DNA from: a virus | DNA length: 55,782 bases | Reading direction: 5' to 3' (one strand) | Virus record (IMG/VR): IMGVR_UViG_3300045988_088382 | Part shown: positions 11,144 through 55,782 of the stretch, in pieces | Layout of the letters: each line of letters begins with the position of its first letter | Numbering within the stretch: the stretch's first letter is position 1 | Made by a program: the position numbers and the translations under genes | Notes under the pieces: model-generated | The model's input: the letters and a program-made list of their open reading frames with translations, nothing else | Databases searched by the model: none | What the model was told of the DNA's origin: nothing

Positions 11144-12207
11144 GCAATCACCTTCAAAACCGCAATCTCATCCATGCGCTCAAAGCTCGGCAGGACGATT
11201 TCGGAAGCAATCGTGTTGATGTTGACCGGGTGCTCCTCAATGATGCGCGTGACCGCAACGCCGGTGTTCACAATGGACACCTCAGCCTTACCGCTGCCCA
11301 TCAGGTCGGCCTCTTCCGGGGTCGTGCCGTACCACGTATAACCCAGGTTGCCATCCGGGATGAGGCACACATAGCCGTCCGGGACGAAAGACTTACTCAC
11401 GCCGTTCTCGTCCTTGAACATCTTGTCGTACACGATGAAGTCAATGCCGACCATATCACGGAACACGTTGGCGATGTCCGCACGGGTCAGGTAGCTGTAG
11501 GATTTGCCGGTAGCCGTCAGGAAACGGTTCTTCACAGCGTCAATCTTCGTCAGCATGTTGAAGGTCGTGTTATTCATAATCGCCGTGGTCAGCTTCGCGC
11601 CGGTAGCCGCAGCGACGGCGTTCTGTGCCTTCTGGATGTCTTCAAACGGATCGGCAGTCGCGGTAGCAGACCACAGCTTCGTGGTGGTCAGGCCGAAGTA
11701 GTTCTTGCTCTTCCAAGCGCCCTCGGGGTCGTAGTCGTAGGCGTACTTCACACCATTAGCCGAGATGTCGATCTTCGCCTCGCCGCCCTCCGGGAACAGC
11801 AGGCTCATAATCATGCGCTCCGGAACGACGTTCGCGCCGTCGATCAGCTCACCCGCGTCGTCGAACACGCGGTCGATGGTCGCACGCGCATACGGATCAC
11901 TGGAATCCTGAACGCGCAGAAGCTCCTGACGGTCATGCTCCTTGATCTTGAAACCCTCGCGGAAGAACGGCATCTCCGTTTCGATCTTCTCAAAGCCGAT
12001 TCGGTCACGGAAAGTCGCCTTCGCGTCAAACGCAGACGGCTTGAGCATGACCGGCAGACCCTTGCTACCCTTGAGCCATTTCAGGTCAAGTCCGGCGCGC
12101 TTCTTGGCCGGGAACAGGCCGGCGCCGAGGTACGGGATCTTGTTGCTCGCAGTCTCCGTCCAGCGGGCGGCGATAACGTCAGGGGTGAAAAAATCAATAA
12201 TGTTCAT
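11140..12207 (-). CDS. major capsid protein (protein-E-like)
   Basis: 355 aa; MNIIDFFTPDVIAARWTE...PYLGAGLFPAKK. Size and position after the scaffold and decoration genes. RBS GGAGGT. Confidence 0.85.
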   Translation of the reverse strand: MNIIDFFTPDVIAARWTETASNKIPYLGAGLFPAKKRAGLDLKWLKGSKGLPVMLKPSAFDAKATFRDRIGFEKIETEMPFFREGFKIKEHDRQELLRVQDSSDPYARATIDRVFDDAGELIDGANVVPERMIMSLLFPEGGEAKIDISANGVKYAYDYDPEGAWKSKNYFGLTTTKLWSATATADPFEDIQKAQNAVAAATGAKLTTAIMNNTTFNMLTKIDAVKNRFLTATGKSYSYLTRADIANVFRDMVGIDFIVYDKMFKDENGVSKSFVPDGYVCLIPDGNLGYTWYGTTPEEADLMGSGKAEVSIVNTGVAVTRIIEEHPVNINTIASEIVLPSFERMDEIAVLKVIA

Positions 12208-12219
12208 GGCTTACCTCCA

Positions 12220-12543
12220 TCAAATGTTTTCGCGGCAGACGATACCCGGAAGCACGGTCAGAAGGTCGCTGGCGGTATAGCTCACGCCGCTGTGCGTGGT
12301 CGCCTTGGTCAGGTTGATAACGCCCTGCACCAGCATTGCGCCGTTCGGGTTACTGGTCGGATCGACGTCATAGAGCAGAATGCCCTGTGCATCGGTCGCC
12401 GCAGAAAGCACGGTTCCGTCAGCCTTGACAGGCGTACCCGCTTTCACAACAGTGCTGCCCTTCACGCTGACCGGGAAGGCGACGAAATCATCAGCGGCCA
12501 GAATCTCAATCGTGCCGCCATACTGCGTCTTTTCATACTTCAT
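12220..12543 (-). CDS. head decoration-like protein (DUF2190-like)
   Basis: 107 aa beta-rich protein between the scaffold and capsid genes; RBS AAAGGAG. Confidence 0.5.
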   Translation of the reverse strand: MKYEKTQYGGTIEILAADDFVAFPVSVKGSTVVKAGTPVKADGTVLSAATDAQGILLYDVDPTSNPNGAMLVQGVINLTKATTHSGVSYTASDLLTVLPGIVCRENI

Positions 12544-14878: not shown

Positions 14879-16510
14879 TTAGAACAGGCGCTGCATCACT
14901 CTTGGCCTATAAGACGTTTCCTCGTCCATACACACCGCCATGCACAGGCTGTCCGGCGCGTCGTCATTCTTGTTTTTGCCGACGATTTTGAAGCTGTACA
15001 CGTTCTGCATAAAAAGCTGATACGGCTTGCTCCGCTTCCCGTCATCCAAAAAGACCATTCGCTCCCGGATGTCCGGCGCTTTATCGAAAATGCGCTGCGT
15101 TTTGCCGCCGGTCGTCCTCTGCGCAACCCTCGTCGTCAGGTTGATCCGCTTTTTGCGCTTGCGCAGAATCTCGTCTACGCCCTCCGCGTAGTCCTCCGTC
15201 ATCTTCGTCGCTTCCACCTGTAACGCGCCAACGCCGTGCTCAATCACCTTATCCGCCACGAGCGCTTGTGTCACACGCTTATCTCCGTTATCGTACACAA
15301 CATCGTGCACATACAGCTCATTCCCGTACTTGAAGATGACCGGCATCGCGCAGAAGTCGCCGCCGCCCCAGCTCGGGTCAAGCGCCGCGAAGATGCGATC
15401 CGGCTCCCCTTCGGGCAGTACGCCGTTGTAATACCTGAAATCGCCAGGGCTGAACACCGCGCCGTCGCGCTCAATCGGCTCGCCCTGATACTGCGCGTTC
15501 CAGCTCGCCATGTCGTTATTCCGCTCAAACGACGCTCTGCGCTGCTGGTAGTACGACGTGTCAAAGCCTACGCCGTACTTGTAGTGGAAATTGCTCTCGT
15601 CCTTCTCGTTCAAGGCCGGAATGTTGATAATCTTTATCCGCCGCCGCGCAAACTTCGGGTTGTTCAGCACCGTGTCAATGCGCTGGCCAATGGGATCTGT
15701 CAGGCTCCACCGCGTTCCGCACCAGAGAATCTTACACCCGCTCTTTGCGCGCGTCAGAAGGTTATTATCCACCTTGCTCCACGCGGCGGTGAGCCGATCT
15801 TTGCTCATGGCTTCCTCAATGCCGCTGATCAGGTCGTCGCTCATCAGGATGCCGTTGACGTCCACAGCGCCGTTCAGCGTGGAATACAGCGATCTGCACG
15901 TCAGAGACGCATACCGCTTCCTGCGGTCGATGTTCAGCGTCTCGTCCTTGCTGTTCGTCGCCACAAGCTCCGCGCCGGGGAATATCTCATGCCATGTGTA
16001 CGTTACCGGGTCGTTGATAATCTCAAGCACGCCGTTGTAGAACGCGGATGTGATGACGTCGGAGTACGCGCAGTACAGGTTCGCCTGCTCGCTGTTCCGG
16101 CCTATCGTCCACGTCATATAGAACATCAGCAGCGACGTTTTGCCTACTCGCGGCGGACAGCTCAAAAACAATTCGTCCAGCTCGTCATCCGCGAGCGCTT
16201 GCAGGCTCTCGACAAACGGTTTAATCACTCGCCGCCGGGGCAGATAAAACCGCTCCTCCGGCTTTCTGTTCCATTCCAGATAGACCAGATAGCTGTCAAA
16301 GTCCTTAGGTGCCGCCCACAGGTATGTTTGCTTCACCAGCTCATACGCCGCCTCGTCGCCCCGCGTGGCGAGCCGCTGCGCGTAGCTTCGCGCTTTCAGG
16401 CACAGCGCCAGATCGTCGGTGTTCCGCGCCATGTCAAACAGCATGCTTATATTCTTGAGATTTGACAGGTTCGATTTCAAAAGCCTGTCGATGATTCGCG
16501 CGTCTTCCAT
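14879..16510 (-). CDS. terL: terminase large subunit
   Basis: ATG at 16510, 7 nt after GGAGGAGG; 543 aa. Walker-A-like CPPRVGKTS. Followed by the portal gene. Confidence 0.9.
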   Translation of the reverse strand: MEDARIIDRLLKSNLSNLKNISMLFDMARNTDDLALCLKARSYAQRLATRGDEAAYELVKQTYLWAAPKDFDSYLVYLEWNRKPEERFYLPRRRVIKPFVESLQALADDELDELFLSCPPRVGKTSLLMFYMTWTIGRNSEQANLYCAYSDVITSAFYNGVLEIINDPVTYTWHEIFPGAELVATNSKDETLNIDRRKRYASLTCRSLYSTLNGAVDVNGILMSDDLISGIEEAMSKDRLTAAWSKVDNNLLTRAKSGCKILWCGTRWSLTDPIGQRIDTVLNNPKFARRRIKIINIPALNEKDESNFHYKYGVGFDTSYYQQRRASFERNNDMASWNAQYQGEPIERDGAVFSPGDFRYYNGVLPEGEPDRIFAALDPSWGGGDFCAMPVIFKYGNELYVHDVVYDNGDKRVTQALVADKVIEHGVGALQVEATKMTEDYAEGVDEILRKRKKRINLTTRVAQRTTGGKTQRIFDKAPDIRERMVFLDDGKRSKPYQLFMQNVYSFKIVGKNKNDDAPDSLCMAVCMDEETSYRPRVMQRLF

Positions 16511-16533
16511 GCCCTGACCTCCTCCGTCGGCAT

Positions 16534-16566
16534 ACAAAAACAGGGGCTATGCTTTCATAGCCCCTG
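16534..16566 (-). terminator. intrinsic terminator (copy B of the two-hairpin element) between the recombinase and terL
   Basis: Minus strand: CAGGGGCTATGaaagCATAGCCCCTG followed by TTTTTGT. About 70 percent identical to copy A, including the flank atagcccctgttggctgt. Confidence 0.7.
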
Positions 16567-16577
16567 TTGGCTGTATC

Positions 16578-16597
16578 CCTCTGCCCGGTCGCGGAGG
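16578..16597 (-). other. GC hairpin (first hairpin of element copy B)
   Basis: cctctgc-ccggtc-gcggagg, in the same relative position as 13224..13243. Confidence 0.5.
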
Positions 16598-16609
16598 TCT
16601 TTTTTGTGC

Positions 16610-17368
16610 TTAATCCCTCGGCAGAATCGCTTCCTGCTGGCCTTCAACCCATTCGCTGTTCTTGCCGTAACGGTAATACCCCTGATAGGTTTTCTTGTTG
16701 TTGAGGATTCCAGCAACTGTCGCGAGCATGAACGGCTTTCCGCTTCTCGTCGGCCAGCCTTCCTCGTTCAGCTTGGCCACCACATCGCGCATCGTCAATC
16801 CCTGATCCCTAAGCTCGAAGGCGCGAATCACGGACGGTGCTTCGTTCGGGTTGACCACCAAATGCCCGTTGGAAACCGAGTAGCCCATTGGCGCCTTTCC
16901 ACCAGAATACCCGCCCTGCTCGGCTTTCTGAATCCGGCCGGCGCTGGTGCGCTTCATAATGTTCTCGCGCTCCATCTCTGCCACGCAGAGCGTGAACGCC
17001 TCTAGCATGTTCGCAAACACGCCAAACTGCCCGAAATCCTCCGCGATTGAGATCAGCTCAATGCCCTTCATCTTGAGCTGCATTTTGTAATAATAATATA
17101 CATTGATGTCTCGGGCGATGCGGTCTGACTTGGCTACGATCACCGCTTCAATCGGCGGGTTCTGCACGTCGCCGTACACAATCCGGTCAAACTCCGGTCT
17201 GTCCATCTTCGCGCCGCTCTTCGCCTCGTCCTTGTACTCGTGAACGAGCTGCATGTCGTTCCTGCGGCAGTATTCCGCAATCTGCGCGCGCTGCGCGTCG
17301 ATGCCGAACTTGTCCTCTCCAACCTGTCCTTCGGTGGATACCCGGATATAGCTCACTACGTTTTTCAC
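16610..17368 (-). CDS. serine recombinase, short form (resolvase catalytic domain plus recombinase domain, no zinc-ribbon/coiled-coil)
   Basis: 252 aa; GTG start 8 nt after GGGAGGG. Catalytic motif YIRVSTEGQ at residues 7-15; VAKSDRIARD. Recombinase-domain-like GGKAPMGYSV and ILNNKKTYQGYY. Confidence 0.9.
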   Translation of the reverse strand: MKNVVSYIRVSTEGQVGEDKFGIDAQRAQIAEYCRRNDMQLVHEYKDEAKSGAKMDRPEFDRIVYGDVQNPPIEAVIVAKSDRIARDINVYYYYKMQLKMKGIELISIAEDFGQFGVFANMLEAFTLCVAEMERENIMKRTSAGRIQKAEQGGYSGGKAPMGYSVSNGHLVVNPNEAPSVIRAFELRDQGLTMRDVVAKLNEEGWPTRSGKPFMLATVAGILNNKKTYQGYYRYGKNSEWVEGQQEAILPRD

Positions 17369-17414
17369 GGCTGTCGCCCTCCCCCAGTGATGGCTTGTGT
17401 CTGTTTATGGCATC

Positions 17415-17443
17415 AGTATAGCACGGCGTTCGTGTATTGTCAA
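17415..17443 (-). promoter_or_regulatory. consensus sigma-70-type promoter for the recombinase (and downstream terL operon)
   Basis: Minus strand TTGACA-17 nt-TATACT. The operator box GTCTGCATA lies 4 nt upstream of the -35. Confidence 0.75.
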
Positions 17444-17447
17444 GTAG

Positions 17448-17456
17448 TATGCAGAC
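17448..17456. promoter_or_regulatory. operator box TATGCAGAC (copy 1 of 4)
   Basis: The same 9-mer or its complement occurs at 17638..17646, 17669..17677 and 17692..17700. Confidence 0.6.
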
Positions 17457-17637
17457 GTTTTTATTTTTTGCGGGTATTCGGGGGATTACCCCCGCGCCTT
17501 TCGGCCTGCCCCCTTAATACCCCCGCCCCGGGATGCATCCAGGCGCGCCGACCCCACCAGGCCGGACGGATCGTATGCCCCGCGCAAGTGGCCGCCGCCG
17601 TGAAAAGTGGGCGCGATCCGCCGCCGCGTCAAAAAGT

Positions 17638-17646
17638 GTCTGCATA
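17638..17646. promoter_or_regulatory. operator box GTCTGCATA (copy 2 of 4)
   Basis: Exact complement of 17448..17456, about 190 nt away across the GC-rich spacer. Confidence 0.6.
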
Positions 17647-17661
17647 ATCTTAATAATACTA

Positions 17662-17690
17662 TTGACACGTCTGCATAACCGTAGTATACT
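17662..17690 (+). promoter_or_regulatory. consensus sigma-70-type promoter for the plus-strand operon 17743..19217
   Basis: TTGACA-17 nt-TATACT, the same hexamers as the divergent promoter. Confidence 0.8.
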
Positions 17691-17700
17691 ATATGCAGAC
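17669..17700. promoter_or_regulatory. perfect 9-bp inverted repeat operator GTCTGCATA-N14-TATGCAGAC bracketing the -10 element
   Basis: Read directly from the sequence; the palindrome is centred on TATACT. Confidence 0.7.
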
Positions 17701-17742
17701 AAAGGAAAAACACAAGACAGACAATCGAAAGGGGATCATTAT

Positions 17743-17979
17743 ATGACCACTTGCCGCAAACCCGCCCACCGCGCTTATTATGTGCGGTATCCCCGCGACT
17801 TTGCCAACGAGTACAGCCTCCGCTATACCGTTGGCGGCGCTGAACTGTCCACCGATGACGGTTGGGAGCGCATCACCCGGCGCGAGGCCGAGCGACTGGC
17901 GCGCGCTGAACGTGAGCGCCGCCGCTGGGAGCCAGAGCGCAGCGGATACGCTGACGCGGATATATACTCCGCCGATTAA
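17743..17979 (+). CDS. hypothetical Arg/Glu-rich protein (78 aa)
   Basis: ATG at 17743 after GAAAGGGGA. MTTCRKPAHRAYYVRYPRDF...RREAERLARAERERRRWE. First gene after the consensus promoter. Confidence 0.65.
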   Translation: MTTCRKPAHRAYYVRYPRDFANEYSLRYTVGGAELSTDDGWERITRREAERLARAERERRRWEPERSGYADADIYSAD

Positions 17980-18022
17980 CAACAACAACAACAAAGACGA
18001 AATAGAAAGAGAGGATTGCACC

Positions 18023-18739
18023 ATGAAAGCGTATACAGAAATCTTGAAGGATATCGCCACCGCCCGCGCGGGCATAGTTGACACCACGAAGGCCGAAAAA
18101 GACTTTACGCGGAAAGCGATGATTACTGCGCGGAAATCCGGAACTGATGCGGAATTTGACGCGGCCGAGGCCGCGTACAAGGCCGCGGAAGAAAAGTATG
18201 TAGCCGAGTGTAAGCACAACGAAGACCTGCAAATAGCGCTTGAAATCCTGAAAGATAACGCCGCACAAGCGTTTTTCGCGGAAAATATCGGCGTCATCTG
18301 CGATATTTGGAACAAATACGCGGGAAAGCCCCACGGGGAAAAGACCTCTGACAAAATCCGCAAAGAATTGTTTGCGGCTTTGGGTGTCCGGGTTTGGATC
18401 GGCAACAAATACAATGACGCGAGCGTTACCTGCTATTTCGACGCGCCCGCCCCATTCCGTGGCCTTGAATTTTGCGCAACCCGCTCCAACGGGGAAAACG
18501 TCCCCGCGTTGATCGGTAACAAAATCCAGTCACTATGCCCGGAGGTTTTCCGCGTCTACAACTGTGGCGCGTATGTGGACGACGTGCCCGCCCACGTGCA
18601 GGCCATCCGAGAGGCGTACGACAAAGCCCGAGCGGCTGAAGCCGCTTTTGCGGCTGCCGTGTCGGATTATAACGCTTTGACGCGCGGCAACATTGCCCAG
18701 GCGTCCACCCGTGAGGGCGTGAAACGCTGGTTTCTTTAA
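18023..18739 (+). CDS. hypothetical protein (238 aa)
   Basis: ATG at 18023 after AGAGAGGA; MKAYTEILKDIATARAG...; no family recognised. Confidence 0.7.
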   Translation: MKAYTEILKDIATARAGIVDTTKAEKDFTRKAMITARKSGTDAEFDAAEAAYKAAEEKYVAECKHNEDLQIALEILKDNAAQAFFAENIGVICDIWNKYAGKPHGEKTSDKIRKELFAALGVRVWIGNKYNDASVTCYFDAPAPFRGLEFCATRSNGENVPALIGNKIQSLCPEVFRVYNCGAYVDDVPAHVQAIREAYDKARAAEAAFAAAVSDYNALTRGNIAQASTREGVKRWFL

Positions 18740-18760
18740 TTTTTGATGGGGGGTTATATC

Positions 18761-19039
18761 ATGCCCAAATCATACACCCCGACGCGCGAGCAGCGCGCGG
18801 AGCTGGAAAGCCTCGCCTATTGGATAGCGGATCGAGCTTGGAGCCGCGAGCGTGGCGAGCTGGACGAGCACGAGGATCAACGCACGAATAACACGATCCG
18901 CGCCATCTTTGACGCGCTGGATCGGCTGCGCGTCCCGTATTGGGCGCAAAACGCCGTGATCTGCTGGGCGGGGGATTGGCGGCGCACGATGTGCGAGGAT
19001 CTGCGGGACGCGATGCGCGCCCGGTCAATAATCTTGTAA
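18761..19039 (+). CDS. hypothetical protein (92 aa)
   Basis: ATG at 18761 after GGGGGG; MPKSYTPTREQRAELESLAYW... Confidence 0.6.
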   Translation: MPKSYTPTREQRAELESLAYWIADRAWSRERGELDEHEDQRTNNTIRAIFDALDRLRVPYWAQNAVICWAGDWRRTMCEDLRDAMRARSIIL

Positions 19040-19061
19040 TTTTCAGATAGGGGGCATTGCG

Positions 19062-19217
19062 ATGAAATTTGAGCGATTCCCAAAACGCTGCTATTTATGC
19101 GGTAAACCATTTTCACAAGCCGCCAAGGCTATCCCTGTAATAGGCGGGAAATGCGCGCCCGGTTATATTTGCCCCGCCTGCTATGCCAAACTATTTAAGA
19201 CGCCCGAAAGGCTATAA
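19062..19217 (+). CDS. small zinc-ribbon protein (51 aa)
   Basis: MKFERFPKRCYLCGKPF...GYICPACYAKLF with two CxxC pairs. ATG after GGGGCA. Not in the ORF track (under 60 aa). Confidence 0.5.
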   Translation: MKFERFPKRCYLCGKPFSQAAKAIPVIGGKCAPGYICPACYAKLFKTPERL

Positions 19218-19254
19218 GAAGGGGAAAAATGAAATCCTCGTATTCCAAAATTGA

Positions 19255-19277
19255 GGGGTATTGATACCCCTTTTTTT
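19255..19277 (+). terminator. intrinsic terminator of the plus-strand operon
   Basis: ggggta-ttga-tacccc followed by ttttttt. Confidence 0.8.
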
Positions 19278-19302
19278 ATGCCCTCGTTATTCGCCGCCTA
19301 TT

Positions 19303-19380
19303 TGCCCGTGTAGCGGTCTTGCGCGTCCCGATGGTATCTTGGTACCACCCCGACACGCAAGGCCGCTACACGGGCATTTT
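19303..19380 (+). terminator. very long hairpin (25-bp arms, 2 mismatches) followed by TTTT
   Basis: tgcccgtgtagcggtcttgcgcgtc ...24 nt... gacacgcaaggccgctacacgggca tttt. The loop contains a KpnI-like mini-palindrome. Confidence 0.6.
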
Positions 19381-19408
19381 AGACCGTTTCACGGCGTGCC
19401 CCTGACCG

Positions 19409-19665
19409 GCAGCAGGGCTTCACCAGCTCCAGCAGCTCCAGCAGCGCCCGGAACGTCGGCAGGGGCTTCACCAGCTCCAGCAGCGCCCGGATCGTCGGCA
19501 GTGGCTCCACCAGCTCCACCAGCGCCCGGATCGTCGGCAGGGGCTCCACCAGCTCCACCAGCGCCCGGATCGTCGGCAGGGGCTACCAGGACGGCAGGGG
19601 CTTCACCAGCTCCACCAGCTCCACCGGCGCCCGGATCGTCGGCAGCGGCTTCCAGGGCGGCAGGG
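19409..19665. repeat. about 6 tandem copies of a GC-rich 39-nt unit (ggcaggggctccaccagctccaccagcgcccggatcgtc)
   Basis: Read directly. Both strands are open across it only because of the repeat. Confidence 0.85.
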
Positions 19666-19830
19666 GCTACCCGACAACGGCGCGCAACCACAGCCGCGCG
19701 GGCGCAATCGAGCACCGCCCCACGCGCGCATCTGCGCAGCTACGCGGGCACACATAGCTGTGCGAACGCATACGCGCGCAGCCGCACAAGCGATCTCACG
19801 TACAGCCGCGCTGGAGGTGTACGCGCGCAA

Positions 19831-19902
19831 CCACACAGCCGTTCGGGCGCATAGCCACGCGGCCGTTCGGGCACATAGCCACACAGCCGTTCGGACGTAT
19901 AG
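19831..19902. repeat. 3 x 24-nt tandem repeat ccacacagccgttcgggcgcatag
   Basis: Units at 19831, 19855 and 19879 with 2-4 substitutions each. Confidence 0.85.
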
Positions 19903-20113
19903 CCGCTTGATTTTTACGCCTGTCTGTAAACACCTTCGGCAGCATCGCGCGGCGCTTTCCCGGAAAGCAAGCGATAAGACCAAGCGATGGCGTGAAAACA
20001 AGCGATGACGCGATCCCCGCGCCCTCACAGGCTGTTGGTTCACTGCTCAGACAGTTTCCTGCCCGTTCTAGGCGTTTTCCTGCGCCGCGTGATATTCTTT
20101 ATCATCCTACGCG

Positions 20114-20139
20114 GCTAAACGCTCAGACGGGCGTTTAGC
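20114..20139. other. 9-bp perfect hairpin gctaaacgc-tcagacgg-gcgtttagc
   Basis: Read directly. Confidence 0.6.
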
Positions 20140-20153
20140 TACTCTCACGCGCT

Positions 20154-20297
20154 CACGCCGTGGGATTTTGAAAACCATACGCCCACGCCGTGGGATTTTG
20201 AAAATCGCGCATGCCGTGGGCTTTTGAAAACTGTACGCTCACGCCGTGGGATTTTGAAAAGCCCATCAGGCAAAATCATCCTGTGGGCTTTTGATTT
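20154..20297. repeat. 5 direct copies of CGTGGG(A/C)TTTTGA boxes (4 as cacgccgtgggattttgaaaa), 26-39-nt spacing, abutting the terS stop
   Basis: Copies start at 20154, 20184, 20210, 20240 and 20279. The last forms part of the terS terminator. Confidence 0.85.
20251..20290 (-). terminator. intrinsic terminator after terS
   Basis: Minus strand: AGCCCACAGG-atgattttg-CCTGATGGGCT followed by TTTTCAAAAT. Confidence 0.7.
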
Positions 20298-20943
20298 ATT
20301 CAATTGTGTAGTCTGTGTCAACGTCCATCTGCATAAACTCGTCTGGCTCTGGCAAATTCTTTGCGATTTCCTCCGGCGTAAGCGGTTCATTGCTGTCATC
20401 CGCGCTTGCCGAAACAACGATTTCCTGACGGTCACTCATGCCGTAATAGTTCTTAGAACGGAAGATATATGTCACCGGATTCATCTTGCCGGATTCGGTC
20501 AAAACTGCGTCTGTGGCGTGTATCATCTCTAAAGCTTTTTTAGCGATGAGTTTTGTACTTATACCCGGTAAAGGCTCATCACGGAATCCCTTATTCATTC
20601 CACTCCGCCAAGCCCTGAGCGTTTCGGACGTATACCCGCAATACAAACCAAGTTCCTCAACCGTTGGAGGGATGGCGCGATTTTGAATTTGATTGAAATA
20701 GTCATCAAGACGCTCTAGCAGCTCGGCGTTGCTCTGTACAGGCTTCATCAAAAATGCCTTCCGCAGATGGCCTATCGTATCGCCGAGAAGGTTCTTTGTC
20801 TCCGGCTTATCCAGATCCGCATAGCCTTGAGGGGCTAAGGATTCACGGGGCTTAAATTCAAACTCCGTCACCGCGTCTGGGCTTTTCAGAAAATTGCTTC
20901 CCCGATTGCTTACGCGGTTAGAGTTGTCACGCTTCGTCGCCAC
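20296..20943 (-). CDS. terS: terminase small subunit (gp3-type DNA packaging protein)
   Basis: 215 aa; GTG 7 nt after GAAGGAGGTG. Pattern PPTVEELGLYCGYTSETLRAWRSG ... NPVTYIFRSKNYYGMSD resembles the HTH plus IF.LKN..GW.D signature of small terminases. Confidence 0.7.
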   Translation of the reverse strand: MATKRDNSNRVSNRGSNFLKSPDAVTEFEFKPRESLAPQGYADLDKPETKNLLGDTIGHLRKAFLMKPVQSNAELLERLDDYFNQIQNRAIPPTVEELGLYCGYTSETLRAWRSGMNKGFRDEPLPGISTKLIAKKALEMIHATDAVLTESGKMNPVTYIFRSKNYYGMSDRQEIVVSASADDSNEPLTPEEIAKNLPEPDEFMQMDVDTDYTIE

Positions 20944-21321: not shown

Positions 21322-21348
21322 ACTTTGACCAAGGCTGAAACGGGGTCT

Positions 21349-21804
21349 GGTGTAGGGTGGTGTAGGGTTTACCCAAGGGGCCCTAACGCGGGGCTAGGGG
21401 CAGATGTAATTAGCTTTTAGGGTGTGCAGACCCTACACCGCCTACACCAACTTCACGCCGCTCCGTAAAAAGTTCTGTGCAGACCCTACACCGCCTACAT
21501 TTTTAGTGCATCTTACACAAAGGATTGTCTACCCGGATTGTGCATCTGGTTTTTCAAATTAACAACTGCTCCCGTGACTACCCTACACCGCCTACACCGC
21601 TACCCTACACCTTGCCTACACCTTGCCTACACCACCCTACACCACCCTACATCTTATAACAAGTGGCCTCAATCAAAAGTTTGTGCAAATGCCTACACAC
21701 CCTACACCAGCGCATATTCGCACGAAAAAGTTTGTGCAAATGCCTACACTGCCTACACCCGTTTTATCTGTAACGCATGTCATTTGGTGTAGGGTGGTGT
21801 AGGC
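21349..21804. repeat. array L1: 19 CCTACAC(C)-type boxes (15 forward, 4 inverted at the two edges) plus two aaaagtttgtgcaaatgcctacac units
   Basis: Counted by eye. The 24-nt left edge ggtgtagggtggtgtagggtttac equals the reverse complement of 44960..44983. ORF-free 540-bp gap. Confidence 0.9.
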
Positions 21805-25822: not shown

Positions 25823-26743
25823 TCATCCCTCCGTTTCATCAAAAATCCCAAGCTGCAACTCGTCTTTGCTCTCTCCGCCTTTTCCGATCCACCAGCGCAA
25901 GACCGATTCGCCGTCCGTCCAATGCCTATTGATGGGTTTTCCCGCTTTTCGCCGTGCGTCCAGCATCTCGTCAAAGGTGCGAATATAAAATGACTTGAAT
26001 TGTGGGAAAAACTCAAGCTCTCTTTGCATGCTCGCAGAGCCGCCCAGCGGGCAGGCCACGCAGCCAAGCCGTTTGAATCCGAAATCGTATAGCTCGCAAT
26101 ACGGTACGTTGTAGAGCCGTATGAACTCCCACACGTCTTCGTCCGTCCAGTCAATAATCGGATTGACAAGCGTTTCGTGTGTCCGATAGCACATCTCAAC
26201 CATTCTGCGGCTCTCGTCGTTATCGGTATTGAGTATCAGCCCGTTTTTGCTCGTTCGATTCGGCTCTGCACCGCTCAAATCCGCTACGTTGTGTAGGCTT
26301 TTGGGCACTTTTGGAATCGTCACAATCCCTTGGTTGTTTTTTCTGTTCCTGCTTTCTGCCCATCTTACGCCCGTAACCACGACGTGCCCGATTCCCTTTG
26401 GTTCTTTTAGTTCGGCGCAACAATAGCGTTGTGTCCTCAGTGGCGGGAATTGCTTTTTGACGATCAGCTCTCGCATGGTATATTCAGGCTTTTCGATTTC
26501 TGTTTTGGGGTGATTCTTCCGGATGAAGCGTACAAGCTGTGGCGGGTCAACTGTCGTCGCGTTGTAGTGAGCGTCAAACCTAACCCCTGCCATCTCGCAG
26601 AGCTTGACGACACATGAGCTGTCTTTCCCGCCGCTGTCTGCGACATAGTACCCCTCTTCCGGCTCAAACGCCCGCAGCCGGTCTATTGCCGTCTGCACCT
26701 TGTCCCGCTTTTGCCCGAAAAGGTCGTACTCAACTAACGCCAT
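25823..26743 (-). CDS. phosphoadenosine phosphosulfate (PAPS) reductase family protein
   Basis: 306 aa. PP-loop-like YYVADSGGKDSS near the N-terminus. RBS GGAGGGG. Confidence 0.75.
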   Translation of the reverse strand: MALVEYDLFGQKRDKVQTAIDRLRAFEPEEGYYVADSGGKDSSCVVKLCEMAGVRFDAHYNATTVDPPQLVRFIRKNHPKTEIEKPEYTMRELIVKKQFPPLRTQRYCCAELKEPKGIGHVVVTGVRWAESRNRKNNQGIVTIPKVPKSLHNVADLSGAEPNRTSKNGLILNTDNDESRRMVEMCYRTHETLVNPIIDWTDEDVWEFIRLYNVPYCELYDFGFKRLGCVACPLGGSASMQRELEFFPQFKSFYIRTFDEMLDARRKAGKPINRHWTDGESVLRWWIGKGGESKDELQLGIFDETEG

Positions 26744-28187
26744 CCGCTATCCCCTCCATCACATACAGTACACATGGTAAAGCCATGCCGTTACCCCACA
26801 TCTCGTATCTCGCGCTGTCGCTTCCCGACACGCCGTCCTCCCACCAATCGGGGAAGCCTTGCAGCCGGCAGCACTCAAGCGGCGTAAGCCGGCGGACAAA
26901 GTAGCGCCGCGCCTTTTTCAGCCAACAGGCGATGTCGGGCACCGTGTTGCTTCCGCTTGGAGCGGCTTTGAGCGTCGGCGATACCGTTTCCGAGTAGCCG
27001 ATTCCCCCGGCCTTTGCGCCCTGTCCGCCCATAAATGCGCAGATCATCTGTTGATCGTGTGCGCATGTCAGCGTTCCCGCCGTATCGGTCATGTAAATCT
27101 GGTTGAGCTGGCCGTTTCCGACGGCCAATGCCGTGTAGTCTGTAATACGGTTCTCGTGGTCGCCGGTCAGCGTCGGCACGATTTTTCCGTCTCCGTTGCC
27201 TCGCGCGTCATAAACGACGGGATTCTGGTAGTTCAGGCTATACCCGCCGTTTTCTTTGGCTTGCAGCGTCCCGCTGATTTCTTCGCCCAACCGCATGTTT
27301 CGGCAATCAACTGAGTAAGCTACCACGTTCCCGCCTTGATTGCACTCCGGCGAACCGGTGAACGTGTCGAGCGTCCGCGCCACATTGCGCTCGCGGAAAC
27401 AGCTATCCGGCGTTCGGCTTTTCATGCTGTTGCTTGTCGCTCCCGTTATGTCAAAAACTCGATAGTCTCTACCAGCGCTTCCCACAGCATCAGCGGTAGC
27501 TTCTTTCCCCGCTTCTCGGCTCTGCGCAAAATTCCCTCGCAAGCCCTCGCGCTTAAAAAGTATTTCTCCGGCGCGTCCACCTCTAAGATCGCAGACAAGG
27601 AAGATTCGGCGGCGTCTTTGGGGGACTCCCCAGTATTGGGCGTCCAGCACTCGCCAGGCAATCGAATAGCCCCCTCCCACGATGTAGCCGGCGTTTCGCC
27701 AAGCAAGTCGGTCTGTTCTGCCTTTTCTCGCAGGTTCAGGAACATTATCTCCGTCGCCACCGGCGGCTTCGACGAACGCACGCAGGACGGCGAGGAAGTC
27801 TCGTCCCTGATTGCTTGATAGCGCGCCCGGCACGTTTTCCCAGACGCCGTATCTTGGGTATTTTCCATGTGTAGCCTCCCGCATTTCCATGATGATCCGG
27901 ATCGCTTCAAAGAAAAGGCTGCTCCGTTTTCCGGCAATCAAGCCTTTTTGCGTTCCGGCGACGCTCAAATCCTGACAAGGCGAGCCGAATGTAACGATAT
28001 CCACCGGCTCGATCTCCGCGCCGTTGATCTTCGTGATGTCACCGAGATGTTTCATTTCGGGGAAGTTATTTTTCGTCACCCGGATGGGGTACGGCTCGAT
28101 CTCGCTTGCCCAGACGGGCGTAATGCCGCACATCGTTGCCGCCAGCGGGCAAGTGCCAGAGCCGTCAAACAGGCTGCCCAGCGTCAT
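26730..28187 (-). CDS. dcm: DNA (cytosine-5)-methyltransferase
   Basis: 485 aa; motif I LFDGSG, motif IV GSPCQDLS, motif VI ENVPG. Confidence 0.9.
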   Translation of the reverse strand: MTLGSLFDGSGTCPLAATMCGITPVWASEIEPYPIRVTKNNFPEMKHLGDITKINGAEIEPVDIVTFGSPCQDLSVAGTQKGLIAGKRSSLFFEAIRIIMEMREATHGKYPRYGVWENVPGALSSNQGRDFLAVLRAFVEAAGGDGDNVPEPARKGRTDRLAWRNAGYIVGGGYSIAWRVLDAQYWGVPQRRRRIFLVCDLRGGRAGEILFKREGLRGNFAQSREAGKEATADAVGSAGRDYRVFDITGATSNSMKSRTPDSCFRERNVARTLDTFTGSPECNQGGNVVAYSVDCRNMRLGEEISGTLQAKENGGYSLNYQNPVVYDARGNGDGKIVPTLTGDHENRITDYTALAVGNGQLNQIYMTDTAGTLTCAHDQQMICAFMGGQGAKAGGIGYSETVSPTLKAAPSGSNTVPDIACWLKKARRYFVRRLTPLECCRLQGFPDWWEDGVSGSDSARYEMWGNGMALPCVLYVMEGIADGVS

Positions 28188-29127: not shown

Positions 29128-31611
29128 TTACGGGTTTTCGTTTCCAAACGTCGGGTCAATAACCTCTACGCCCTTGAGCATAACGCCCTTCTTTTCCCGA
29201 CAATATTCAAAGCCCTTCTCCTGCATTTTCTTCTTAAATTCCCGGTCACCGCCATACCACTTCATGCCGGATTCCTGCATCCAGCGCGTAAACGTCTGGA
29301 AAACAAGCCCGGTCGGCGTTCGTGCATCGGCGTTATCCAGCGAACAACACTCGTTTACAAATCGCGTGATCACGTCTTCGTTGTCCAAATACTCCTTTGT
29401 CGCTTCCAATACGACCTTCGGTTTTTTGAGCTTCATGTGCTGCGCGTAAAACTTCATCGCGCCCTCGATCATCCATGCGAGAATAGCGGGGCCTTCTTTT
29501 TCCACCAGTACGCCCGCGAAGTCCATGATCTTTTCTTCGGGCTTCAAGCTCATGTTAAACGGGGCTACCGCGATACGCCGCGCAGTACCGCCGTCAACGC
29601 TTTTAAGGCGTGGCAGATGGTTTGTATGCAGGATTAGCGTATGGCTCGGCGTAAACGTAATAGGCTCGTGGAATTTAACGTTTGCGCTGATCGGGTCTTG
29701 AGAGGTTAGCCGCTTGAGCATAGATGACTGCATGGCTTGGTTCGCTTCAAGCTCACTTGTCAGCACAAGGCGCTTGCCACGGAGTAAGTTCTGACCGGCA
29801 ACCTCGCTTCCGTTCCGGCTGCCCGTCAGCACCTCATTTCGAACCGTCGCCGCATAACCGCCTAATAGCGTATGCCAAACGGAGAATAACGTAGACTTAC
29901 CGTTTCCGCCATTGCCGTACACCAGCAGCAAGCCTTCCTCGTACACCTTGCCTACCAGCGCCATCCCGGCTACCGTCTGAATGTATTCGGCAAAGTCCGT
30001 GTCATCGCCGGTCACTTGACGCATGAACTTGTCCCATAGCGGTCTTTGAGCCGTGAAATCGGGCGATAGCCGCGTCATCATCGTGCACATATATTCAGCC
30101 CTATGCGGCTTTTCCTCGCCTGTACGGAGGTCTATAACGCTGTCAGACGTATTCAGCAGCCACGGATCGTTGTCAAATTCATCCGCGTCGCGCACACTCA
30201 TCAAAGACTGAGCGGCTTGAAGCGTATGTGCCATGACGTTATAAGATCGGCTTGCAGTAGCCCACTTGACCGCCGCCACAGCATCCTTGTAATCCTCCGG
30301 CCAATCGTCACGCTTGCAGCCTTTTTCGGGCTTAGGCGCGAGCTGAAATTTGCGGTCAGCCTCGTCCTTCATGCGGTCGTTCAGGCACATAACCAGCATG
30401 ATCGCGTCTGTCTTGGCGTACTGTTGCCAAACAGCGCCGTCCCATACGCACCAGTCCAGCGCGCCACTGTATCGCATGACGTTAAAATTTGAATCCTTTA
30501 GCCTAATAGCATTGCCGGATTCTGTGTAATCGCGGTCGTCGCGACGAAGAATGTCAGCATCCCCGCCGTCAGCGAAATCACGGCTGGCGTTGATCTGGAT
30601 CATGTCTTCCAACTTGTGCCGCACTTCGCTGTCGGACGAGATTAGACTTTTCATTTTTTCAAATGATCGTCCTTCATCGCTGTCCGGGTAAAGGTGGAGG
30701 CGTACAAGGTCAAAGGCATTGCACGTTCGCCCGTGACAAGGATCGCTCTCATGGTGAGAGTATGCAAACAGCCCGTCGTCATAGACTACCAATCCCGCCG
30801 TGGTAGACGCGCCGATGAACGTATATCGGTTCGGCATGCCCTCACAAGGCGAATACACTTTTCCCAGGAACTTCGAAATCGCCTGATGCACGTCGTAGAC
30901 CGAGCAGAACGCGCCAACAATGCCATTCTTACTGCGCGGGTCTTGCTGCTTGTCCTTGATCTCGTGTGCTTGTGTGCGCGTCGTGCGCGAAGATATAGGC
31001 CATGAAGCACGATTTTTATAATCGGCATACATGCCCAGCACTTCATCGACATCAACGAAAGCCCCGTCACGCTGTTTGACGATGAACTCACCGTCCCGGC
31101 AAGTGCTCGGCCAGAACATCAGGCGTGATGCCTGATATGTCGTGTCGTCGAACAGCTCAATGTCGATCAGCGATGCGACCATTCGACCTACGGCCTCGTA
31201 CTCGATTTTGTCCACGTCGCGTGACAGCGGCATATACAGCCTGTAACGCGGCTTCTCCCGCGTATGACTGTGCGTGGTGTGCATCAGGCATGTCCAGTCG
31301 TAAAGGTCACACAACCCGTCTACAACGTCCCAAGTGTCGGGCTTGCCATAGTCGATGTCCAAAGAGAGAATCTGACGGGACAAAAGATTCGACCCCCGAC
31401 GGATTCCGTCTTTGAACTCGCCGCCGACAAATCCGCCAACGTCTTTAATGCGGCCTTTTGATTCGCGATCCATGGCCGCGTACTCGACCTCGGTCTCATT
31501 TGTCATGCGCGTATGGGACAGCCGCTCGCAAAGCTCAGGCCATGTCAGGTGTACGGGTCTCCATGACGTAGCGTTTTTGCTCAACCCTTCACTAATCGTC
31601 AGCGTTTGCAT
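29128..31611 (-). CDS. bifunctional primase-polymerase / D5-P4-type helicase
   Basis: ATG at 31611 after GAAGGGAG; 827 aa. AEP-like LSLDIDYG and HTTHSHT..PRYRLYMPL in the N-terminal part. Walker A GNGGNGKST in the C-terminal part. Confidence 0.85.
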   Translation of the reverse strand: MQTLTISEGLSKNATSWRPVHLTWPELCERLSHTRMTNETEVEYAAMDRESKGRIKDVGGFVGGEFKDGIRRGSNLLSRQILSLDIDYGKPDTWDVVDGLCDLYDWTCLMHTTHSHTREKPRYRLYMPLSRDVDKIEYEAVGRMVASLIDIELFDDTTYQASRLMFWPSTCRDGEFIVKQRDGAFVDVDEVLGMYADYKNRASWPISSRTTRTQAHEIKDKQQDPRSKNGIVGAFCSVYDVHQAISKFLGKVYSPCEGMPNRYTFIGASTTAGLVVYDDGLFAYSHHESDPCHGRTCNAFDLVRLHLYPDSDEGRSFEKMKSLISSDSEVRHKLEDMIQINASRDFADGGDADILRRDDRDYTESGNAIRLKDSNFNVMRYSGALDWCVWDGAVWQQYAKTDAIMLVMCLNDRMKDEADRKFQLAPKPEKGCKRDDWPEDYKDAVAAVKWATASRSYNVMAHTLQAAQSLMSVRDADEFDNDPWLLNTSDSVIDLRTGEEKPHRAEYMCTMMTRLSPDFTAQRPLWDKFMRQVTGDDTDFAEYIQTVAGMALVGKVYEEGLLLVYGNGGNGKSTLFSVWHTLLGGYAATVRNEVLTGSRNGSEVAGQNLLRGKRLVLTSELEANQAMQSSMLKRLTSQDPISANVKFHEPITFTPSHTLILHTNHLPRLKSVDGGTARRIAVAPFNMSLKPEEKIMDFAGVLVEKEGPAILAWMIEGAMKFYAQHMKLKKPKVVLEATKEYLDNEDVITRFVNECCSLDNADARTPTGLVFQTFTRWMQESGMKWYGGDREFKKKMQEKGFEYCREKKGVMLKGVEVIDPTFGNENP

Positions 31612-40879: not shown

Positions 40880-41340
40880 TTTGCCGCTGCCCTGCGGCGC
40901 CATGCAATGCCACAACCTCGCTGAGCTAAACTCTGCAATGCCCTCGCAAAGCCGGGCTGCACCGTGCCGTCGCCGTGCATGACTAAACTGTACTTCGCCG
41001 TTGCAGTGCTTAGATGGGCTATACGATGCCCGCGTATTACTGTGCATTGCCCTTACTTTGTGTAGCAGCACTTTGCCCTTGCTGAGCTAAACTCTGCGTT
41101 GCCCTTGCAATACAAAGATGCGCTAGGCCATGCCCTTGCCGAGCTATGCAGTGCAGCGCCCTTGCATGGCTATGCTCTGCAATGCCCTTGCTGAGCTAAA
41201 CTCTGCGTTGCCGTCGCAGAACGTGTCATCGCCATGCCTTTACTACGCATTGTTAGGCAATGCAATGCCCGAGCAACGCGGTGCTTTACCTCTGCTTAGC
41301 TGTGCAGTGCTTTGCCGTAGCAGAGCTTGACTTTTGCGAG
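40880..41340. repeat. degenerate tandem array with about a 27-nt period, core TGCCCTTGC
   Basis: Three near-identical copies of gctgagctaaactctgc at 40920, 41081 and 41190 (spacings 161 and 109 nt, that is 6 x and 4 x about 27). Many weaker units lie between them. No ORF covers the array. Confidence 0.8.
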
Positions 41341-44544: not shown

Positions 44545-44885
44545 TACTTTCACGCCGTGCCGGGTACGCCTGATAAGTTCATCCAGCCAAGTTTGATCCT
44601 CGTGCGTCATCCTAATCGCTCCTTTCAACGGGTTCTATGCGGCCATACGCCGCTTGAATCGAATCGGTGGATGCCTTTGACATCCGCGCCCGTAGAACGC
44701 GCTACAGGGCGAATATCAAAGCCATCGCTTCTTTGTCCAAGTATACCGCTAAACGAGCCGAATATGCGCGCTTCGACAAAGACATTCACAAACCCGTATG
44801 AAAATATAAAAATCGCCAAACACCCCGGATTGTTATGACATATAGCAATCGGCCTGACTCTAAAATCCTATCGTTTTGATTGGTT

Positions 44886-45123
44886 GGTGTAGGGTGTGTA
44901 GGGTTTACACTATAATACTCTAAGGTGCGCGTGGGGGCGCGGGTGTAGGGATTAATTATGTAAACCCTACACCACCCTACACCAGAGGCTAAAATCGCCG
45001 ATTTTCACCGCGTAAAAAGTTCGTGCAGACCCTACACCGCCTACACCCGTAAAAAGTTTGTGCAAATGCCTACACTCCCTACACCCGTAAAAAGTTTGTG
45101 CAAATGCCTACACTCCCTACACC
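44886..45123. repeat. array L2: 11 CCTACAC(C)-type boxes (3 inverted, 8 forward), a 24-bp inverted repeat and a 2 x 37-nt tandem repeat, abutting int
   Basis: The inverted repeat 44886..44909 / 44959..44983 flanks 49 nt. The tandem cgtaaaaagtttgtgcaaatgcctacactccctacac lies at 45048..45084 and 45085..45121. Paralogous to L1 at 21349..21804. Confidence 0.9.
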
Positions 45124-45175
45124 AGCGCGCTTCGTCACGTCGGTTTGGGGTGCGATTTTAAGGAGGATTGAGCGT

Positions 45176-55590: not shown

Positions 55591-55782
55591 TTAAGCATAC
55601 ACAATCTCGCTCATTTCGAGGATGCATTGCAGCAGGGTTTCGTTCTGGTTTTCAAGCGTCTTGATGCGTTCTTCCTGCGTCGGCTTCGGTTCTCCCGGTT
55701 CCGGCACTTCCGGCTCGACGTACACGCTGCCGTCGTCGGAGAGCTGCACCGCGTTGTCAAGGGTGCGGTAAACGGTCGTGTA
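55591..55782 (-). CDS. C-terminal part of the junction-spanning ORF (same gene as 1..217)
   Basis: The frame is continuous with 1..217 once the 55-bp overlap is collapsed (354 nt in total). It ends ...TQEERIKTLENQNETLLQCILEMSEIVYA with TAA at 55591. Confidence 0.6.
   Translation of the reverse strand, partial: YTTVYRTLDNAVQLSDDGSVYVEPEVPEPGEPKPTQEERIKTLENQNETLLQCILEMSEIVYA
55728..55782. repeat. terminal direct repeat copy 2 (identical to 1..55)
   Basis: Exact 55/55 identity. Confidence 0.95.

Follow-up and report, generated by a model that had tools for sequence, protein, structure and literature searches.

What could account for a kilobase of gene-free, repeat-packed DNA lying directly behind the small-terminase gene (terS) of a temperate phage? 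The question is raised by the IMG/VR record IMGVR_UViG_3300045988_088382, the full 55,782 nucleotides of which are called here the window. An earlier note on this DNA had described the tract at 19280-20297 as free of open reading frames (ORFs) and as built from at least six unrelated repeat families, and had proposed that it serves as a protein-assembly platform (a pac/terminase recognition region, a replication origin or a partition-like site) or else as a structured transcript. All of these families are present, at or near the places given for them, and both limits of the tract, a plus-strand terminator and the terS stop, were correctly drawn. Nevertheless, only one of the families, an array of short direct boxes abutting terS, has travelled with that gene beyond the close relatives of the window. 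We give about an even chance to the reading that this array is the recognition site of TerS and that the tract is a packaging-initiation or terminal-repeat region.

The evidence that carries this reading comes largely from distant relatives. Outside the close clade only the box array has counterparts, and the rest of the tract is without similarity. Homology of the whole tract to these relatives was accordingly rejected, and the idea that six unrelated families form one platform goes unsupported on the same ground. Wherever TerS is at least 44% identical to that of the window, the box GGGATTTTGAAA, which reads AAAATCCCA on the terS strand, follows terS in a single orientation. Within the window it is confined to the tract; when up to two mismatches are allowed, TGGGATTTTGAAA has 9 matches in the window against 1.7 expected, a number reached in none of 100 shuffles. 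In the loci with a TerS of 44-57% identity (L029-L034 and L111) the terS-strand box reads TTTCAAAA(T/G)CCCA and is present in 3-7 or more copies. L033 and L034 have about nine boxes as a pure array, while L029, L030, L032 and L111 have clusters of boxes between small opposite-strand genes. Further boxes lie inside or upstream of the 5' end of terS in L029, L030 and L111, so that there the gene is embedded in the array. In lineages with a more divergent TerS this position is taken by other short direct repeats, namely CGACTAT, CGACTTT, CGACTCT or GTAACTTTC, the last in up to 13 copies.

More than 30 related loci have an array at this same position just after terS, and the box types are clade-specific on the TerS tree. 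With an array defined as at least 4 copies of a 7-mer within ~410 nt after terS, 27 of the 42 loci of the TerS family (P22 gp3-like) possess one, compared with 7% of 501 control windows. These comparisons tie terS, throughout the family, to a box array peculiar to each lineage, and by the same comparisons the box is the sole old component of the tract. There is, in addition, a weak likeness (E=0.04) between the CAAGCGAT boxes of the tract and the CAAGCGACTAT boxes that follow terS in clade 2, in the opposite orientation.

Judged by profile matches and a predicted structure, terS encodes a genuine P22 gp3-type small terminase. Its product matches Pfam GP3_package, weakly (E=7.8e-5), and PHROG 606, and PF16677 is precomputed in 14 of its homologues. 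With the AlphaFold model of TerS as query, the top five PDB matches in Foldseek are all to the P22 TerS nonamer 3P9A (probability 0.96-0.99; target-normalised template-modelling score 0.55, E=0.055). The similarity of terL to the T7 nuclease domain in Pfam is weak (E=5.5e-4) and below the cutoff.

The closest cultured relative, Clostridium phage Maintenon (ON453900), provides a mapped genome end for comparison. Its terL and terS are 43.8% and 31% identical to those of the window (terS E=9e-12), and it has the same layout of terS, a gap (here 2.6 kb) and terL, with direct repeats TTTGTTAGCTTATA right after terS. It is unlike the window in that its non-coding DNA has no similarity to the tract and its gap contains tRNAs, no recombinase and no GC-rich arrays. 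Read starts among the virion reads of Maintenon, analyzed with PhageTermVirome, gave the termini as 'DTR Short (478 bp)', that is, a short direct terminal repeat (DTR), at position 27,277 (PMC10197239, Table 2). The GenBank record places terS at 26,723-27,472 and the start of terL at 30,124; in those coordinates the terminus is therefore in the 3' end of terS, and under the reverse orientation it would be ~350 bp upstream of terL. Either way it is inside the terS-terL interval, which corresponds to the tract, and this is supportive of a packaging function there.

In the scheme that we favor, the array of TTTTCAAAATCCCACGG by the terS stop (four to five copies on the terS strand, 26-37 nt apart) would be the assembly site for an oligomeric TerS of the P22 gp3 type, and TerL, brought into place by TerS, would then cut concatemeric DNA nearby. 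The virion ends would fall in or beside the tract, possibly with a short direct terminal repeat comparable to that of Maintenon; by extrapolation from that phage, the repeat would extend over roughly 20.0-20.5 kb. The two long hairpins, together with the CAAGCGAT boxes and the arrays of 24-nt and 39-nt units, would be clade-specific, fast-evolving accessory or passenger features and not independent machines, and the tract as a whole may be a transcriptionally silent, recombination-prone genome-end region between convergent terminators. We infer the binding of TerS to the boxes, cleavage in the tract and the kind of virion ends from comparison, together with one published terminus in a relative, and we consider this the most economical reading. 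What survives of the platform proposed earlier is its terminase option, and this for the CGTGGGATTTTGA box array, which tracks terS and shares its interval with the Maintenon termini; an origin or a partition site is disfavored and a structured RNA unsupported, as detailed below. The small NUMOD1-like protein encoded upstream of terS had been put forward as a second binder; this is unlikely because lineages that share the box lack its gene.

Considering what is known of other packaging sites, the layout of a multi-copy array 3' of terS in a 1-kb tract appears to be new, although the kind of site is already known. The pac of SPP1 (pacL-pacC-pacR) has short repeated boxes, bound by the TerS protein gp1, that flank the TerL cut site (PMC6316719). 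As in SPP1, the boxes proposed for the window are physically tied to the terS gene; the SPP1 site differs in overlapping the promoter, the ribosome-binding site (RBS) and the 5' end of gene 1 and in extending over a few hundred bp, whereas the main array of the window is 3' of terS in a 1-kb tract that has extra GC-rich arrays. Moreover, SPP1 TerS and P22 gp3 are members of different families, and binding and cutting in the window are a proposal from sequence. In lambda, cos is upstream of Nu1, with the R1-R3 gpNu1 sites in cosB and cohesive ends of 12 nt; in P22, pac is a single asymmetric site of ~22 bp inside gene 3. Both resemble the window array, if this is what we propose, in being a TerS recognition site adjacent to or inside terS. 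They are unlike it in that the window has multi-copy direct repeats outside the gene, together with a TerS predicted to have the P22 gp3 fold.

The concatemer junction of T7-like phages is a further parallel: its terminal repeat is flanked by short repeat arrays, and a hairpin-forming palindrome is used in end duplication. The tract is likewise non-coding with short repeat arrays and a palindrome, and the window phage has its own family-A polymerase and primase-helicase. The sole DNA match of the tract among GenBank phages, a (CCAGCAGCG)x13 array at the extreme end of a T7-like Klebsiella phage record, fits this parallel as a curiosity. However, the window phage is unlike T7 in being a temperate siphophage type with an integrase and a terL that is weakly T7-nuclease-like. 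If the box arrays are indeed TerS sites, a lineage-specific direct-repeat array after terS would locate packaging signals in a large group of uncultured Gram-positive gut phages, and such a rule would help to predict genome ends and transduction potential and aid the design of packaging-competent vectors.

Several points weigh against this reading. For the phage of the window the case is comparative, for the ends as well as for the binding, and shared ancestry of the entire locus could be all that lies behind the match between box type and TerS tree. For P22-type TerS proteins the classical target is a pac within terS, not a set of repeats behind the gene. Of the 1018 nt, ~850 are unmatched beyond the close clade, so the packaging reading covers those nucleotides only by association. 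The Maintenon terminus is supportive and not exact because PMC10197239 states no coordinate frame, with neither the coordinate system nor the orientation being given. Finally, in L029, L030, L032 and L111 the boxes are set between small opposite-strand genes, with the last copy adjoining each RBS, a pattern that looks regulatory or RNA-level and not packaging-related.

It is because the boxes interleave cargo genes and abut RBSs in some lineages that the strongest rival is a regulatory or RNA-level role. The boxes would then be elements of convergent transcription units, either operators for a phage regulator or intergenic mRNA elements of the cargo operon (the small opposite-strand genes), and would resemble mobile regulatory cassettes that promote small-gene shuffling. 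The PeSL elements of T4-type phages are mobile regulatory cassettes of this sort. In the four loci just named each gap between the small genes holds 2-5 boxes, the last of which extends into the RBS (TGGGATTTTGAAAGGAG...ATG), and relatives vary in their gene sets (X-A-C-D versus A-B). Furthermore, each window box can fold into a small hairpin followed by a T-run (CCCACGCCGTGGGATTTTG). The hairpin, however, is not conserved across lineages as the box alone is, the boxes have no -10/-35 arrangement, and boxes also occur within the terS coding region. In the window clade, L033 and L034 the arrays are uninterrupted by genes. The cargo between 17770 and ~19267 does vary among the relatives in the window clade, but its breakpoints are scattered (17770, 17882, 17979) and none is at a box; exchange of box-bounded cassettes was rejected for this clade. 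On balance, we judge a regulatory role for the boxes to be unlikely.

The anatomy of the tract and the arrangement of the surrounding genes are given in Table 1.

Table 1. Coordinates of the tract, its repeat families and the neighboring genes, with the recombinase genes of three related loci.
Feature	Position	Strand	Remarks
terL, large terminase	14879-16537	minus	followed by the portal gene; likely true start is an ATG near 16510
Serine recombinase, 252 aa	16610-17368	minus	upstream of terL; own transcription unit; sigma-70-like promoter 17443-17415; terminator hairpin ~16575-16540
Serine recombinase of L006	8418-8987		upstream of terL
Serine recombinase of L029	10091-10867		upstream of terL
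Serine recombinase of L112	8291-9040		upstream of terL
Cargo operon	17743-19217	plus	four small genes, function unassigned; promoter 17662-17690
Intrinsic terminator of cargo operon	19253-19272	plus	left edge of tract
ORF-free tract	20297-19280		1018 nt; between terS stop and plus-strand cargo terminator
Imperfect palindrome	19303-19376		74 bp; 34-nt arms, 85% complementary; 6-nt centre
39-nt GC-rich array	~19417-19668	plus	~6 units; 73% GC
GC-rich core	19669-19830		69% GC; conserved; with ACGCGCGCA(A/G)CC boxes
24-nt tandem array CCACACAGCCGTTCGGGCGCATAG	19831-19904	plus	3.1 copies
Three CAAGCGAT boxes	19968, 19981, 19999 (19968-20006)	plus	
Two overlapping alternative hairpins	20060-20133 and 20114-20139		27 pairs in the first; 9-bp stem in the second
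Box array CGCCGTGGG(A/C)TTTTGAAAA	20154-20257	plus	four direct copies; terS-strand reading TTTTCAAAATCCCACGGCG; proposed TerS recognition array
terS terminator hairpin AAAAGCCCATCAGG...CCTGTGGGCTTTTGA	20258-20295	usable on both	inverted repeat; 3' arm is the fifth box
terS, P22 gp3-type small terminase (predicted)	20296-20943	minus	stop at 20296
Small NUMOD1-like gene	21321-20959	minus	upstream of terS

Three of the strongest tandem arrays of the 55.8-kb genome are located in the tract. The hairpin near its left edge had been credited with arms of 25 bp; it is there, but the arms are longer, and the outer 19 bp of this palindrome are invariant in 10 relatives. The 39-nt array, which Tandem Repeats Finder resolves into 4.1 copies at 94% plus a 66-nt period x1.9, contains a 9-nt sub-repeat, GCTCCA(C/G)CA. 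The ACGCGCGCA(A/G)CC boxes (19677, 19771 and 19820) are within a degenerate series of ~24-nt units at 19677-19910, and the core as a whole is a degenerate continuation of the 24-nt series. A 22-mer from the core had a sole match in the species-genome collection, to a marine archaeal metagenome-assembled genome, and this was dismissed as a chance match. The two alternative hairpins are kept in 14 relatives, among which no compensatory pairs occur, and have four invariant G-U pairs on the plus strand. With the terminator copy included, there are five CGTGGG(A/C)TTTTGA boxes (20154-20294) at spacings of 30, 26, 30 and 37 nt. The gaps between them are 7-11 nt, and the array starts 2 nt past the terS stop. 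The terS terminator hairpin is invariant in the relatives (diversity 0.024).

The minus (terS) strand of the 39-nt array also carries, at 19507-19619, five copies of the E. coli Chi octamer GCTGGTGG. Genome-wide there are 8 copies, all on the minus strand, against 1.4 expected, which may be coincidence. A function as Chi sites was not retained: the consensus is that of E. coli and the host Chi may differ, the relatives alternate GCTGGTGG with GCTGCTGG, and there is no enrichment elsewhere in the genome. No E. coli match to the phage was found.

Is the tract truly without genes? Long open frames are present in all six frames, and a decayed or repeat-containing gene had to be considered because the 39-nt and 24-nt periods are multiples of 3. 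In seven aligned relatives the variable sites of the tract are distributed over the codon positions as 40/33/33 (p=0.63), compared with 12/45/5 for terS and 4/59/2 for the SPFH gene, both of them flanking genes. The tract ORFs have no Pfam or PHROG matches, tblastx of the tract against the cargo of the relatives found nothing, and in relatives the analogous arrays repeat at 11 and 16 nt. The flat codon-position profile, the lack of homology and these periods together rule out such a gene. The tract is non-coding. The description as ORF-free holds in the sense that the substitutions in these frames have no third-position bias, and the relatives give no sign of the decayed coding gene that the earlier note had named as the finding that would overturn its proposal.

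Among close relatives the tract is both retained and highly changeable. It is present in full in more than 20 metagenomic and IMG/VR contigs whose TerS is 96-100% identical to that of the window (L105 is 100% identical to the window itself, and a contig at 100% identity comes from sample SAMN05194731), and its length among close relatives is 818-1184 nt. A comparison of copy number among relatives, proposed earlier, reveals that the units expand and contract: in 19 close relatives there are 2-7 boxes plus the terminator copy, and the close relatives have 0-8 of the 39-nt units and 3-5 of the 24-nt units, with the CAAGCGAT boxes steady at 3-4 copies. Even L103, 99.2% identical overall, has one 39-nt unit fewer. 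The tract evolves by fast gain and loss of units, even among near-identical phages. Its nucleotide diversity is 0.07-0.17 versus 0.02-0.05 for the flanking genes, with two islands (19350-19409 and 19710-19829) at ~0.03, equal to the coding background. A first impression, from one alignment, of an invariant core more conserved than genes was abandoned, as the diversity profile puts the core level with the coding background.

These data bear on a second rival, according to which most of the tract, comprising the palindromes and the GC-rich arrays of 39-nt and 24-nt units, is a functionless, slippage-prone minisatellite that builds up in a silent gap where only the terminators matter. A tract diversity 2-5 times that of the flanking genes is what such a minisatellite would be expected to have, as are unit counts that span 0 to 8, the absence of similarity beyond the close clade and the unrelated GC-rich arrays, with periods of 11, 15 and 16 nt, at varying terS-terL positions in other lineages. 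Yet the two islands are as conserved as coding DNA, the palindrome and the hairpin at 20060-20139 are kept in all of the relatives, and a tract of 0.8-1.2 kb has been retained in more than 20 phages in spite of their differing cargo. Moreover, GC-rich arrays recur in every lineage, which suggests selection. We find the minisatellite explanation rather unlikely as an account of these elements. The recurrence of GC-rich minisatellites suggests either a role that the lineages share and that does not depend on sequence, or else a mutational tendency of the region; the GC-rich arrays of the tract and its palindromes are clade-specific and are not explained by the comparative data.

Several metagenomic contigs break within the 39-nt array. 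Contig ends were considered as a stand-in for virion ends and rejected, since those of the relatives do not coincide and several are in this array. In L108 (4299-5896; ERZ27305715 k141_197254), which has an identical TerS, homology to the window ends at the start of the 39-nt array (19612). Beyond this junction is an ORF for the C-terminal part of a bacterial TopB-like topoisomerase, and the junction is either a chimera made in assembly at the repeats or the product of a real recombination event.

Farther from terS, the gene order terS-tract-cargo-recombinase-terL means that terS and terL are ~3.7 kb apart. In many lineages of the phage group the gene directly preceding terL encodes a serine recombinase, of the 252-aa type in some and of a 189-aa resolvase/invertase type in others. 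The 252-aa protein of the window corresponds to the N-terminal half only of a large serine recombinase (catalytic and 'Recombinase' domains). The conserved synteny of this gene with the packaging region could mean a role in circularizing or resolving terminally repeated genomes.

A third rival goes further and places the crossover site of the recombinase within the tract, with the 74-bp palindrome as one example; phage DNA would be circularized or resolved there, in the terminal region. The 252-aa and 189-aa types share the same slot directly upstream of terL, and the window gene forms a unit apart, with a strong sigma-70-like promoter and a terminator of its own. Imperfect palindromes are, in addition, typical of serine-recombinase sites. 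On the other hand, distant loci with the same type of recombinase share no palindrome, and the palindrome was rejected as its site for want of such a counterpart. The Maintenon gap has no recombinase, and no inversion or deletion bounded by tract elements was seen in more than 25 relatives. We therefore hold this proposal to be distinctly improbable. P1, with Cre-lox near its pac, is the obvious comparison; Cre is a tyrosine recombinase that acts on a defined 34-bp lox. P1 resembles the window in having a site-specific recombinase gene beside the packaging region of a temperate phage, and its terminally redundant DNA would be of the kind envisaged here. The window differs in having a serine recombinase, whose link to the tract is conjectural, and no lox-like counterpart was identified.

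A more ambitious conjecture, which taken as a whole we consider improbable, is that terS, tract, cargo, serine recombinase and terL form a functional unit new to phage biology, with the virion ends in the tract. The recombinase would act at a terminal-repeat site to circularize or resolve the genome, in a role like that of Cre-lox; the GC-rich arrays with the Chi-like GCTGGTGG near the ends would protect or recombine injected linear DNA; and the box array would double as a recombination hotspot for swaps of small accessory genes between phages.

The convergent terminators that flank the tract also raise the possibility of a long structured non-coding RNA, or of repeat-derived small RNAs acting as decoys or antitoxin-like repeats. 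The terminators on both sides would suit such an RNA, as would the four invariant G-U pairs in the hairpin at 20060-20139, which are workable on the plus strand only, and a fold z-score of -2.5 for the plus-strand segment 19900-20160. Phages of this group do carry large non-coding RNAs: the clade-2 relatives have a full-length ROOL RNA (RF03087, 302 bits) downstream of terL, at 11755-12273 (+) in L006. Nevertheless, Rfam has no match in the tract or the whole window, even at E<=1, and known RNA families were rejected on this basis. The z-scores for the core are -0.3 and -2.0 (all segments, -0.3 to -2.5), and each hairpin has at most 1 compensatory pair among 30-34 pairs, in relatives that are too similar for a strong covariation test. 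The promoter scan found no sigma-70-like promoter inside the tract. The locus resembles neither a ToxI-like type III toxin-antitoxin system nor a CRISPR array: no toxN-like or cas gene is adjacent, the neighbors being terS, the cargo and the recombinase, and the boxes are separated by gaps of just 7-11 nt. An RNA function for the tract is, in our estimation, highly improbable.

Least probable of all, in our view, is an iteron-type replication origin or a plasmid-like partition site, in spite of the several direct-repeat families with their 24-39-nt spacing. An origin is disfavored because the tract has no AT-rich unwinding segment (its GC content is 63%, with a minimum of 0.425 over any 40 nt) and because the replication genes are distant, at 29-39 kb (9-19 kb off), with those for the polymerase, primase-helicase and SNF2 at 29-37 kb. 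Across lineages, moreover, the boxes go with terS and not with replication genes. A partition site is disfavored because the phage has a tyrosine integrase and because no ParA, ParB or Rep was found among the 30 ORFs scanned with Pfam, a subset of those in the genome. A better candidate for an origin or an operator cluster than the tract is another array, 26 nt x5.2, at 41073-41212, which is intergenic and located by a Bro-N gene and the early/lysogeny region.

As to the genome as a whole, the record is a circular assembly in which bases 1-55 recur at 55728-55782 (a 55-bp k-mer overlap), and it represents the complete genome, ~55.7 kb, of a temperate siphophage, probably of a Gram-positive gut host. 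Nearly all of its genes are on the minus strand, and they include those for a tyrosine integrase, a family-A DNA polymerase, a D5-type primase-helicase, an SNF2 helicase and a C5 methylase. Human-gut metagenomes commonly contain this phage: the exact sequence of its TerS is indexed in 112 blocks of the assembly collection.

The position of terL poses a transcriptional problem of its own. A path from the late promoter upstream of terS to terL would cross the terS terminator, the tract, the antisense cargo and the recombinase terminator. With terL behind these barriers (window 16537-20296), either antitermination or an unrecognized terL promoter is implied. One of the cargo genes encodes a 51-aa zinc-ribbon protein, and in close relatives the cargo at 17743-19217 is swapped for other genes, which makes the region between terS and terL an accessory-gene hotspot. 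This split terS/terL layout, with its variable cargo slot and conserved serine recombinase, marks such a hotspot. Among the relatives, the terS-terL gap can also contain tRNAs: tRNA-Trp and tRNA-Gln in Maintenon (L100 3819-3967) and the tRNA-like 3' half at ~6900-7040 of L112.

Upstream of the recombinase promoter there is a GC-rich element (...CCGCCTGGGGGAAA.ATGGGGC...GCGGGGTTA.TGGCCAGACCAC.CGCCAAAG) that is conserved between L029 (9950-10040) and L032 (2590-2680), with a similar-looking sequence in the window at 17440-17640 (-). A second repeat system, made up of CCCTACACC/GCCTACACC boxes and ~38-nt units (GTAAAAAGTTYGTGCA...CCTACACC), occupies two sites in the window, one upstream of the NUMOD1-like/terS operon (21340-21800) and the other directly upstream of the tyrosine integrase (44880-45130). 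The segment 21390-21449 is invariant in seven relatives (diversity 0.000) and is the most conserved stretch of the alignment; it probably contains operator or arm-type sites that link the control of int to that of the late operon. Finally, a 123-nt tandem duplication (x1.9) is located at 779-1013, within the minus-strand ORF 230-1198.

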